Shown piece after piece: positions 57,008 through 60,329 of a stretch of 64,000 nt of DNA. The DNA comes from Escherichia coli. Lineage in GTDB: Bacteria > Pseudomonadota > Gammaproteobacteria > Enterobacterales > Enterobacteriaceae. The notes beneath the pieces are model-generated. The model ran no database searches. It had not been told where the DNA came from and saw nothing but the letters and a program-made list of their open reading frames with translations. The first letter of the stretch is position 1. Each line of letters opens with the position of its first letter. The translations under genes were made by a program, and so were the position numbers. The stretch lies in NCBI RefSeq assembly GCF_001677475.2, contig NZ_CP015229.1. The stretch is one strand, 5' to 3'.

Positions 57008-57446
57008 ATGTCTGCCGCAGGAAAGAGCAACCCACTGGCAATCAGTGGCCTGGTTGTGCTCACACTTATCTGGAGTTATAGCTGGATTTTCATGAAGCAA
57101 GTCACCAGCTACATCGGTGCCTTCGACTTCACCGCCTTACGCTGCATTTTCGGCGCTCTCGTTTTATTCATCGTCCTTTTATTACGTGGTCGCGGAATGC
57201 GCCCGACGCCGTTTAAATACACCTTAGCCATCGCCCTGTTACAAACCTGTGGGATGGTTGGCCTGGCGCAGTGGGCGCTGGTCAGCGGCGGAGCGGGGAA
57301 GGTGGCGATCCTGAGCTATACCATGCCGTTCTGGGTGGTGATTTTCGCCGCGTTGTTTCTCGGTGAACGCCTGCGACGTGGGCAATATTTCGCGATAATG
57401 ATTGCCGCTTTCGGCTTATTTTTGGTGTTGCAGCCGTGGCAACTCG
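57008..57446 (+). pseudogene. yijE: yijE (EamA-family transporter) 5' fragment, interrupted by IS insertion
   Basis: [18 protein letters not shown]... reading frame runs into the IS at 57447; rejoining 57446 to 59863 restores a 301-codon frame. Confidence 0.8.
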
Positions 57447-57539
57447 TATGAGACGACAATAACTCAGTCCGCCTGGCGCCGATTATTCTGGCCGGTTTTG
57501 TAACCTGAGTGTCATTTACATGATCCAACAGGAAATGGC

Positions 57540-59039
57540 GTGACGCTCAATACTTCTCAGGTCAGTTACTATATGACTCAGCGTAAGAAAGGTATAACTC
57601 AGCATATCTCGGCCATGAAGGCTGGTATCTCAGTCCGTTCTGGTCGTCGGATCGAAAAAGGAGAGTGGGCAAAAAACAGTGTTCGGCACTGGCGCACACG
57701 CAAAGATCCTCTGGAAGCTGTGTGGGACAGCATGCTTGTTCCTCTGTTGAAAGAGAGGCCGGCTCTGACACCAACAACTCTACTGGAGATGCTACAGGAT
57801 AAATATCCCGGCCAGTACCCCAACAGCCTTCGAAGAACAATGCAACGGCGGGTTCGCGAATGGAAACTACAGTATGGTACAGAGCAGGAGGTCATGTTCC
57901 GCCAGCAACATCAGCCCGGCCTGCGAGGCCTGTCGGACTTTACTGAACTGAAAGGTGTAGTTGTCACCATCGCCGGTAAGTTGTTGGCGCATAAGTTGTA
58001 TCACTTCCGTCTGGAATGGAGCCACTGGAGCTGGATGCGGGTTGTTCTGGGTGGTGAGAGCTTCTCTGCTCTGGCTGAAGGCCTGCAGGAAGCCCTCGGA
58101 CAACTGGGCGGAGTGCCGGTAGAACATAAAACGGACAGCCTGAGGGCAGCATGGAAACAACAGGGCGAAGATGGACGCCGCGAGCTGACTGAGCGTTATG
58201 CTACTCTCTGTCAGCACTACGGAATGCAGGGCGTACACAATAATGCCGGTCGGGGCCACGAAAATGGCTCGGTTGAAAGTGCCCACGGACATCTGAAAAG
58301 GCGTATCTGTCAGGCGCTGATACTGCGGGGCAGTAACGACTTCAGCACCATAGAAGAATATCAGGCCTTCATCACTCAGCAGGTTATGCGGCACAACCGT
58401 AACAATCAGGATCTGGTCAAGGAAGAACGTCTTCATCTGAAACCGCTGCCGCTTCGTCGCAGTGCTGACTATGATGAGCTGACTGTGAGGGTTAGTCGCA
58501 GCAGTACCATCAATGTGAAGCACGTCGTCTACAGCGTACCTTCCCGGCTTGTAGGTCAACTGTTACGGGTCAGGTTATGGGACGATCGTCTGAGCTGTTA
58601 CGTTGGCAGCAGCGAGGTCATGAGCTGCCCTCGCGTCAGACCAGAAAAAGGGAAGACGCGGGCCCGTCGTATCGACTTCCGACATGTGATCGACAGTCTG
58701 GCAAAAAAGCCCGGTGCGTTCTGCCATGCAACGCTGAGAAATGACATCCTGCCGGACGATGAATGGCGGAGGCTGTGGCGTCGCTTATGTAATCATCTGG
58801 AGCCCGATATGGCAGGAAGGCTGATGGTACATGCCCTGAAACTGGCTGCAGGATACGACGATATCTCAGTCGTGGCAAAAGGTATGGAGCAGATGCTGAA
58901 TACCCCGGGAAACGTGGATCTGCACCGGCTGATGCGCTTCCTGGGTATAAAAGAAAAGGCGTTGCCGGTAGTCAATGTGATACAGCATAACCTGAGCAGT
59001 TATGAGCAACTACTGCGTGGCAAGGGAGGTTCGCAGTGA
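57540..59039 (+). CDS. istA: IS21-family transposase IstA (start uncertain; GTG 57540 or ATG 57573)
   Basis: 499 aa ORF with N-terminal HTH, followed by overlapping istB. Confidence 0.75.
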   Translation: MTLNTSQVSYYMTQRKKGITQHISAMKAGISVRSGRRIEKGEWAKNSVRHWRTRKDPLEAVWDSMLVPLLKERPALTPTTLLEMLQDKYPGQYPNSLRRTMQRRVREWKLQYGTEQEVMFRQQHQPGLRGLSDFTELKGVVVTIAGKLLAHKLYHFRLEWSHWSWMRVVLGGESFSALAEGLQEALGQLGGVPVEHKTDSLRAAWKQQGEDGRRELTERYATLCQHYGMQGVHNNAGRGHENGSVESAHGHLKRRICQALILRGSNDFSTIEEYQAFITQQVMRHNRNNQDLVKEERLHLKPLPLRRSADYDELTVRVSRSSTINVKHVVYSVPSRLVGQLLRVRLWDDRLSCYVGSSEVMSCPRVRPEKGKTRARRIDFRHVIDSLAKKPGAFCHATLRNDILPDDEWRRLWRRLCNHLEPDMAGRLMVHALKLAAGYDDISVVAKGMEQMLNTPGNVDLHRLMRFLGIKEKALPVVNVIQHNLSSYEQLLRGKGGSQ

Positions 59040-59791
59040 GCAATATCCATCACCTTGAACATAGCCTGCGTAAACTACGCCTGACACGAGTTGGAGCTGA
59101 ATGGCACGCTCTGGAAAAACGAGCGCTGGCAGAAGGCTGGACACCATCGCGCTATCTTCTGACGCTATGCAATGAAGAACTCCTGTGGCGCGAGAGTGAA
59201 AAACTGCGTCGTTATAAAAAGGAGGCCCGGTTGCCAGTTGCCAAAACGCTGAGCGAATACGACTTCAGTCAGGTGCCGGAACTGAATGGAGCTCAGTTCC
59301 GGCAACTCTGTGAAACGACAGACTGGGTTGATGCAGGAGAAAACGTTCTGCTGTTCGGAGCCAGCGGGTTGGGGAAAAGCCATCTGGCGGCAGCGATCGT
59401 GGATGGCGTAGTAGGTCAGGGCTACCGGGCCCGGTTCTACAGCGCAGGAGAGCTGTTGCAGGAACTACGTAAAGCCAGAGCTCAGTTGAAACTGAATGAG
59501 CTGCTACTGAAACTGGATCGCTACCGGGTGATAGTGGTGGATGATCTTGGCTATGTAAAACGCGATAGTGCCGAAACGGGTGTGCTGTTCGAGTTAATAG
59601 CGCATCGCTATGAACGTGGGAGCCTGGTGATAACCAGTAACCATCCGTTCAGCATGTGGGGCAGCATCTTCGTGGATGAGACTATGGCGGTGGCTGCGGC
59701 AGACAGGCTGATCCATCACGGATATATGTTCGAACTGAAAGGGGAAAGCTACAGGAAAAAGACAGCGAAGGCAGTAACAAGCGCGACTTGA
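59036..59791 (+). CDS. istB: IS21-family helper ATPase IstB
   Basis: 251 aa ORF with Walker A GASGLGKSHLA, start overlaps istA stop (GTGA). Confidence 0.85.
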   Translation: MSNIHHLEHSLRKLRLTRVGAEWHALEKRALAEGWTPSRYLLTLCNEELLWRESEKLRRYKKEARLPVAKTLSEYDFSQVPELNGAQFRQLCETTDWVDAGENVLLFGASGLGKSHLAAAIVDGVVGQGYRARFYSAGELLQELRKARAQLKLNELLLKLDRYRVIVVDDLGYVKRDSAETGVLFELIAHRYERGSLVITSNHPFSMWGSIFVDETMAVAAADRLIHHGYMFELKGESYRKKTAKAVTSAT

Positions 59792-59856
59792 TGTCGCCCT
59801 GAAGGGTGCGGCCAGTATAGTTGGCGCGAGTCGGCAAAACTAGTTGACGTCTAATA

Positions 59857-60329
59857 AACTCGATTTTTCTTCGATGAAAAGTGCCATGCTGGCAATCCTC
59901 TCCGGTGTTAGTTGGGGGGCGAGCGCGATTGTTGCTAAACGTCTGTATGCCCGTCATCCGCGCGTGGATTTATTGTCGTTAACATCCTGGCAGATGCTCT
60001 ATGCGGCGCTGGTGATGAGTGTGGTCGCTTTACTGGTGCCGCAACGTGAAATTGACTGGCAGCCCACCGTGTTCTGGGCGCTGGCCTACAGTGCGATTCT
60101 GGCGACGGCGCTGGCGTGGAGCTTATGGCTGTTTGTGCTGAAAAACTTGCCTGCCAGTATTGCCAGCTTAAGCACACTGGCCGTTCCCGTTTGCGGCGTA
60201 CTCTTTTCCTGGTGGCTGCTCGGTGAGAATCCGGGGGCCGTTGAAGGTAGCGGTATTGTGCTGATTGTGCTGGCACTGGCGCTGGTGAGCCGTAAGAAAA
60301 AAGAAGCCGTCAGTGTAAAAAGGATCTGA
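59857..60329 (+). pseudogene. yijE: yijE 3' fragment downstream of IS
   Basis: ...[33 protein letters not shown]... continues the yijE frame. Confidence 0.8.

Follow-up and report, generated by a model that had tools for sequence, protein, structure and literature searches.

What has come to lie within yijE in the stretch of Escherichia coli DNA analysed here (64 kb; hereafter, the window), how did it get there, and does either the newcomer or the interrupted gene still work? The original prediction, made from the sequence alone, had proposed a simple insertion of an IS21-family element, bounded by a short target-site duplication, that inactivates a transporter gene of the EamA family. We arrive at the same answer and can put a name to it: almost certainly, the segment at positions 57447–59856 represents an intact copy of ISEc10, probably capable of transposing, that reached yijE by ordinary IS21-type transposition. 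Both the observation and its interpretation were correct, the element is one that had already been named, and the event is of an ordinary, already known kind.

A clean insertion between the two halves of yijE

The hexamer AACTCG occurs at 57441–57446 and again at 59857–59862, and the two occurrences bracket a segment of 2410 bp (57447–59856). Joining 57008–57446 directly to 59863–60329—that is, taking out the element together with one repeat—yielded an uninterrupted open reading frame of 301 codons plus stop, corresponding to a restored yijE. The window aligns collinearly with positions 4,078,174 to 4,140,685 of E. coli K-12, with katG, yijE, yijF, and gldA in the same arrangement, and K-12 carries a single AACTCG at the insertion point (4136541–4136546). 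When the flanks were mapped onto K-12, the left one extended up to 4,136,546 and the right one began at 4,136,541, giving an overlap of exactly six bases, AACTCG. Because K-12 holds this hexamer in single copy and the flanks overlap on precisely those bases, the match between the two hexamers is not a product of chance, and they represent the left and right copies of a true target-site duplication.

To this we can add a comparison across the species. Using as query a 144-nt reconstruction that lacks the element and one repeat, we recovered the empty site as one unbroken stretch in 5425 of 5426 complete genomes of E. coli (all of them other than that of the host itself), in which the gene is annotated as "cystine transporter YijE". 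The filled junction between yijE and the element was absent from all 5426. These results uphold each part of the proposed event, from the identical 6-mers on both sides to the recovery of an intact 301-codon gene and the simple nature of the insertion.

The 147-residue product of the interrupted gene (see below) was encoded in one public short-read contig, Logan SRR25942434_46, which is recorded for 7 samples. This contig is 100% identical to window positions 53008–57475 and terminates 29 nt inside the element, which is the behaviour expected of an assembly on reaching a repeat. Among the 5426 complete genomes, the best identity to the flanking DNA was 96.8% for positions 49000–57446 and 98.7% for positions 30000–38000. 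The window also contains two ORFs that are absent from K-12, for which the NCBIfam models gave no match.

The inserted element is a complete copy of ISEc10

A megablast search with the 2410-bp segment returned matches in 898 of the 5426 complete E. coli genomes, on chromosomes as well as plasmids and at up to 14 places per genome. Near-identical copies are named "IS21-like element ISEc10 family transposase" and "ISEc10 family helper ATPase IstB" in RefSeq, and the full-length identity of the window element to copies annotated in this way was 98.5–99.8% over 2410 bp. At the lower end of this range stands the CFT073 type (98.5%; 37 nucleotides differ), with which the window copy shares 495 of 499 IstA and 250 of 251 IstB residues (four and one substitutions, respectively); at the upper end are the copies of OkiPb01695 and RM9088 (99.8%; 4–6 nucleotides differ). 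Under the ISfinder rule, which treats elements with >95% DNA identity or >98% protein identity as isoforms, these values place the window copy within ISEc10. The exact IstA sequence of the window copy recurred in 145 blocks of a public assembly collection, comprising prophages, plasmids, and chromosomes, and no second ISEc10 copy was found elsewhere within the 64-kb window.

The boundaries of the element could be read from its other occurrences. We compared 18 further full-length copies, located at different sites with unrelated flanks: all are 2410 bp long and have the same end bases, starting with TATGAGACG and ending with CGTCTAATA. Thirteen of them are bordered by duplications of 6 bp, three by 5 bp, and one by 7 bp, while a single copy (L015) has none. 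Since these ends are common to 18 copies at other sites, both the limits of the element and the length of its duplication are established independently of the yijE locus. We also considered a left end lying a few bases outside 57447, as BLAST matches across the junction began 3–10 bases earlier, and rejected it: among the other copies, flanking sequence is dissimilar as far as the T of TATGAG.

Measured against ISEc10 of CFT073 and other strains, the copy oriented as yijE on the plus strand of the window therefore has the same 2410 bp, the same termini, the same layout of istA (499 aa) and istB (251 aa), and the 6-bp duplication that most copies display, but differs in its insertion site (yijE is occupied in none of the 5426 complete genomes) and by a few substitutions. 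Family and boundaries (57447–59856) are accordingly as originally predicted, with the RefSeq annotation, NCBIfam models scoring above their cut-offs, and the shared ends of the 18 copies all in agreement. ISEc10 has been caught in motion before: de novo insertions adjoining lpp were obtained under drug selection in laboratory work on CFT073 (PMC7482066), and ST131 strains have been reported to carry the element in their afa promoter region (PMC8764528).

ISEc10 encodes a long IstA transposase and an IstB helper

Two genes, istA (57540–59039) followed by istB (59036–59791), lie consecutively on the plus strand and fill the element, in the order typical of the IS21 family. This two-gene organisation is also that of IS21 from Pseudomonas aeruginosa plasmid R68.45, which shares with ISEc10 multiple terminal repeats and short target duplications; IS21 has an IstA of ~390 aa, a 4-bp duplication, and ends of the form TG...CA. 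In ISEc10, istA comprises 499 codons and starts at a GTG that follows AGGAA. A shorter reading from the ATG at 57573 (488 aa) was rejected, as residues T5, Q8, and V9 upstream of M12 are conserved among homologues, the start at GTG 57540 comes with a ribosome-binding site, and RefSeq likewise gives 499 aa.

IstA scored 226.4 bits against the NCBIfam model for IS21-family transposases (NF033546; curated cut-off 160). Within Pfam-A, the sole match was Mu-transpos_C_2, a Mu-transposase-type beta-barrel at residues 311–366, with no match of IstA to the rve and HTH models, and a phmmer search of the PDB sequences with IstA gave no match, not even to the IstA of IS5376. As phmmer alone and the Pfam rve model gave no result, it took profile and fold comparisons to establish the link to IS5376 IstA. 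A profile built from an alignment of 34 homologues matched the latter (8b4h; 406 aa in the chain as deposited) with an E value of 1e-21, profile positions 4–369 corresponding to chain residues 3–355. The AlphaFold model of IstA (mean pLDDT 88) had its best PDB matches in 8b4h and 8q4d, followed by TnsB, MuA, and retroviral integrases. IstA is composed of HTH1, HTH2, a DDE core (D133, D199, and E246), the beta-barrel, and a helical C-terminal domain; the three residues of the core are invariant in the 34-sequence alignment (A1), at spacings of 65 and 46 residues.

The IstA of IS5376 from Geobacillus stearothermophilus (PDB 8b4h, 8q3w, 8q4d) displays the same order of HTH1, HTH2, DDE, and beta-barrel domains and is likewise paired with an IstB AAA+ helper. 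However, the two transposases are only about 17–18% identical, and IS5376 IstA measures 400 aa as compared with 499 aa in ISEc10. The extra length is accounted for by the helical domain (residues ~384–467), which is additional to IS5376 IstA and is located between the beta-barrel and a short C-terminal tail that both proteins share; in precomputed Pfam hits, this domain bears the label PF27155 (Y4rL_C). The original prediction had singled out the transposase as long by comparison with that of IS21 itself. Its length holds at 499 aa, but it is no oddity: when 1.8 billion cluster representatives were searched exhaustively with IstA, 674 clusters were retrieved at E ≤ 1e-30, many of them 490–520 aa in size and aligning with IstA from end to end. 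IstA proteins of ~500 aa form a large subgroup, their extra ~100 residues being the helical C-terminal domain, and the long IstA is a trait of this subgroup rather than an anomaly.

The 251 codons of istB start at a GTG that overlaps the istA stop codon (GTGA) and is preceded by AAGGGAGG; through this overlap, istB is translationally coupled to istA. Its product is an AAA+ ATPase with a Walker A (GASGLGKS, 108–115) and a Walker B motif (VIVVDD, 165–170). IstB scored 266.7 bits against the NCBIfam model for IS21 helper ATPases (NF038214; cut-off 200) and matched PF01695 (IstB_IS21) with an E value of 1e-61 and IS5376 IstB (8q3w) with 4e-45. Within Walker B, ISEc10 carries DD (169–170), in contrast to the DE of IS5376 with its catalytic E167.

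Each end carries two direct repeats spaced by 23 bp

The left terminal inverted repeat spans 57447–57495 on the plus strand and the right one 59808–59856 on the minus strand. Imperfect inverted repeats had been predicted here, and the termini TATGAGACGACAA and TATTAGACGTCAA (reverse complement) indeed match at 11 of 13 positions. Further inward, the block CGCCGATTATTCTGGCCGG (57477–57495) matches the reverse complement of 59808–59826 at 15 of 19 positions, both blocks occupying positions 31–49 from their respective end. Terminal and subterminal blocks together make up a 48-nt imperfect inverted repeat with 71% complementarity. When each end was slid along itself, an offset of 23 bp was the best in both (13 of 26 matches each, 26 in total; next offset, 18), and a total of 26 matches was reached at any offset in 9 of 5000 shuffles. 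The corresponding repeat cores are L1 (57452–57471) and L2 (57475–57494) at the left end and R1 (59832–59851) and R2 (59809–59828) at the right end, with a direct-repeat consensus per end of roughly CG.CaA.tA....gCCG. In two relatives whose IstA proteins are 45–50% identical (L024 and L026), the layout of two repeats at 23 bp is even clearer.

The subterminal similarity had originally been taken as consistent with multiple IstA binding sites. This idea can be retained in a sharper form: either end has two direct repeats (L1/L2 and R1/R2), the subterminal block being the second of them and not merely the continuation of a longer inverted repeat. Such an arrangement is in line with what is known of the family, as the direct repeats of IS21-family ends are spaced by 23 bp, integration requires two complete repeats, and, in the structure solved for IS5376, the catalytic IstA subunits are found on R1 and the structural subunits on R2 (PMC10122671). 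Two direct repeats per end are thus common to ISEc10 and IS5376, the spacing of 23 bp being that given for IS21 ends in the same study (PMC10122671).

In one respect, the ends depart from those of IS5376. The 3′ ends of ISEc10 are TA (5′-TATGAG... and ...CTAATA-3′), a register fixed by 19 copies in all, whereas IS5376 ends in CA-3′. A terminal CA-3′ dinucleotide is usual in the IS21 family, though not universal, and is also typical of many other DDE elements; ISEc10 lacks it. Of the two relatives, aligned in this register, L024 starts with TG and L026 with TA, arguing that the subgroup tolerates both terminal dinucleotides. The duplication at yijE is conventional: target-site duplications in the IS21 family measure 4–8 bp, a range that includes the 6 bp seen here.

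A predicted route of transposition and expression

By analogy with the structures and biochemistry of IS5376 (PMC10122671, PMC11208146), a tetramer of IstA would bind L1/L2 and R1/R2 and thereby pair both ends of the element, while ATP-bound IstB decamers would bend the target DNA and bring in IstA by way of its beta-barrel. Both 3′-OH ends would then attack the target at points separated by 6 bp, or occasionally by 5 or 7, and gap repair following this staggered strand transfer would produce the AACTCG duplication.

As to the expression of the transposition genes, a sigma-70 scan detected no promoter-like sequence for istA in the left end, and 57506–57515 is predicted to form a hairpin with the istA GTG start region (57540–57549). 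When the two ends are abutted with 1–3 bp between them, the outward-facing TTGACG of the right end (59844–59849) and GACAAT of the left end (57453–57458) come to lie 16–18 bp apart. In tandem or circular intermediates, the two hexamers may consequently constitute a promoter reading into istA. Tandem or circular intermediates are known for IS21, where a promoter is assembled across the abutted ends; the ISEc10 parallel is one of sequence potential only. Weak native expression is the normal state of IS21-type elements.

The insertion splits yijE between its two EamA repeats

The element separates a 5′ part of yijE (57008–57446, plus strand; codons 1–146), collinear with K-12 yijE and containing the first EamA repeat, from a 3′ part (59863–60329, plus strand; codons 147–301 plus stop) that contains the second. 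In the restored protein, the EamA repeats extend over residues 12–141 and 152–289, which confirms yijE as a gene for an EamA-family transporter; the K-12 annotation reads "cystine exporter". The insertion after codon 146 hence falls between the two repeats. The interrupted frame consists of 146 native codons and a Val codon, followed by a TGA at 57449–57451 that stems from the first bases of the element. Most likely, then, YijE is truncated to 147 residues and the transporter is inactive. The neighbourhood katG-yijE-yijF is as in K-12, and a polar effect on yijF is not expected because yijF converges on yijE.

Alternative explanations

Might the flanking AACTCG copies instead be coincidental, or the outcome of a rearrangement such as recombination between two ISEc10 copies? 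Any given 6-mer will match by chance about once in 4096 cases, and rearranged copies do exist, as illustrated by the one of 18 other full-length copies that lacks a duplication. Yet yijE is perfectly restored once the element and one repeat are removed, 5425 of 5426 genomes carry this empty-site sequence without a break, both flanks follow the K-12 order with an overlap there of exactly 6 bp, and 6 bp is the commonest duplication length of ISEc10. We consider this explanation effectively refuted, its residual probability being negligible. A different objection grants the insertion and holds that the yijE copy is an inert relic, complete in structure and no longer mobile, to which the missing promoter-like site upstream of istA and the hairpin predicted to cover its GTG start would lend some credence. 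Weak expression is, however, normal for elements of the IS21 type. Moreover, both reading frames are intact with their catalytic and Walker residues in place, the target duplication is perfect, and IstA of identical sequence occurs at many other locations. Given, in addition, that ISEc10 transposes in the laboratory (PMC7482066), we regard an inert copy as unlikely, and this copy is probably transposition-competent in its own right.

The fate of the host gene invites a third question, namely whether the two halves of YijE, severed at the EamA linker, could be produced independently and come together again as a functional split transporter. The position of the insertion, after codon 146 and in the linker between the repeats at 12–141 and 152–289, is suited to such an arrangement; an ORF that opens at TTG 59844, within the right end, continues in frame into the 3′ part of yijE; and istB is transcribed in the same direction, so that read-through from it might yield the C-terminal half. 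Against this, neither TTG 59844 nor ATG 59874 is preceded by a ribosome-binding site, a sigma-70 scan from the right end into the 3′ part of yijE revealed no –10 hexamer in the yijE flank to accompany the outward TTGACG, and split DMT-type transporters of the YijE kind are not known to assemble. A surviving YijE function hence strikes us as highly improbable; were it real, the insertion would rewire yijE expression instead of knocking the gene out.

Implications for the host lineage and the IS21 family

With an ordinary ISEc10 insertion as the favoured reading, the annotation of this region should read yijE::ISEc10, a pseudogene, and the host lineage is consequently probably without the YijE cystine exporter. 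The yijE/ISEc10 junction itself—present in none of the 5426 complete genomes and in one short-read assembly from 7 samples—offers a convenient marker of that lineage. For the family at large, ISEc10 clearly exemplifies the design of two repeats 23 bp apart at each end within the long-IstA subgroup, here combined with TA-3′ ends.

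The IstB Walker B motif and predicted hairpins in ISEc10

The IstB protein of ISEc10, the IS21-family element inserted in yijE, carries the Walker B sequence VIVVDD, whose two final Asp residues are 169 and 170 (window positions 59540–59545). It differs here from the IstB of the structurally solved IS21-family element IS5376: ISEc10 has an Asp at the position that the catalytic Glu167 occupies in IS5376, where structure 8q4d carries a mutation.

We found a strong hairpin within the istB coding region (59264–59314), with an 11-bp perfect stem (CCGGAACTGA...TCAGTTCCGG), a free energy of −25.8 kcal/mol and a z-score of −4.0 relative to shuffled sequences. 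A 10-bp stem was also predicted in the istA leader (57506–57549), where positions 57506–57515 pair with the GTG start and first codons of istA and the AGGAA ribosome-binding site is partly occluded; the leader as a whole reached a folding z-score of only −2.2. If formed, this stem could dampen translation from transcripts entering from yijE.

Other ISEc10 copies and IstA relatives

Three further ISEc10 copies, all located outside the window, are not simple insertions. One (L015) lacks a target duplication, another (L006) adjoins a second IS21-like istB, with a differing left end and a frameshift in its own istB, and the third (L020) is cut off inside istB by an IS66-family element. Several of the IstA homologues recovered from cluster representatives (P0036–P0043; 680–830 aa) bear an N-terminal extension of 200–350 residues ahead of the IstA-like part.

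Differences from K-12 in the surrounding chromosome

Comparison with K-12 revealed an insert at 746–2792, between fabY and yiiE, and an overlapping 614-aa ORF (651–2495) without a K-12 counterpart. This ORF is present at ≥80% coverage in 1061 of the 5426 complete E. coli genomes, annotated as 'hypothetical protein', and searches of Pfam and NCBIfam returned no match to it. It contains the sequence CKSAKDRT, a CX5R-type motif, which we take to resemble that of SopB/IpgD-type phosphoinositide phosphatases.

At 12356–14542, most of the frv operon (K-12 positions 4,088,342–4,092,548) is absent, replaced by a 464-aa ORF (13109–14503) with a match to Porin_8, a family of RafY-like glycoporins (E = 4e-154). 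Downstream of ISEc10, the yijF–gldA intergenic stretch at 61104–61205 is probably a dispersed intergenic repeat, because it shares 86% identity with the yiiX–metJ intergenic region of K-12 (4,127,951–4,128,052).

Host lineage

Neither of two host segments found a close match among the 5426 complete E. coli genomes: identity peaked at 96.8% for metB–katG–yijE (49000–57446) and at 98.7% for glpK–sbp (30000–38000), with every genome falling within a 95–99% identity band to these segments. This pattern suggests that the host belongs to a poorly sampled Escherichia lineage, or else that its alleles are divergent locally.
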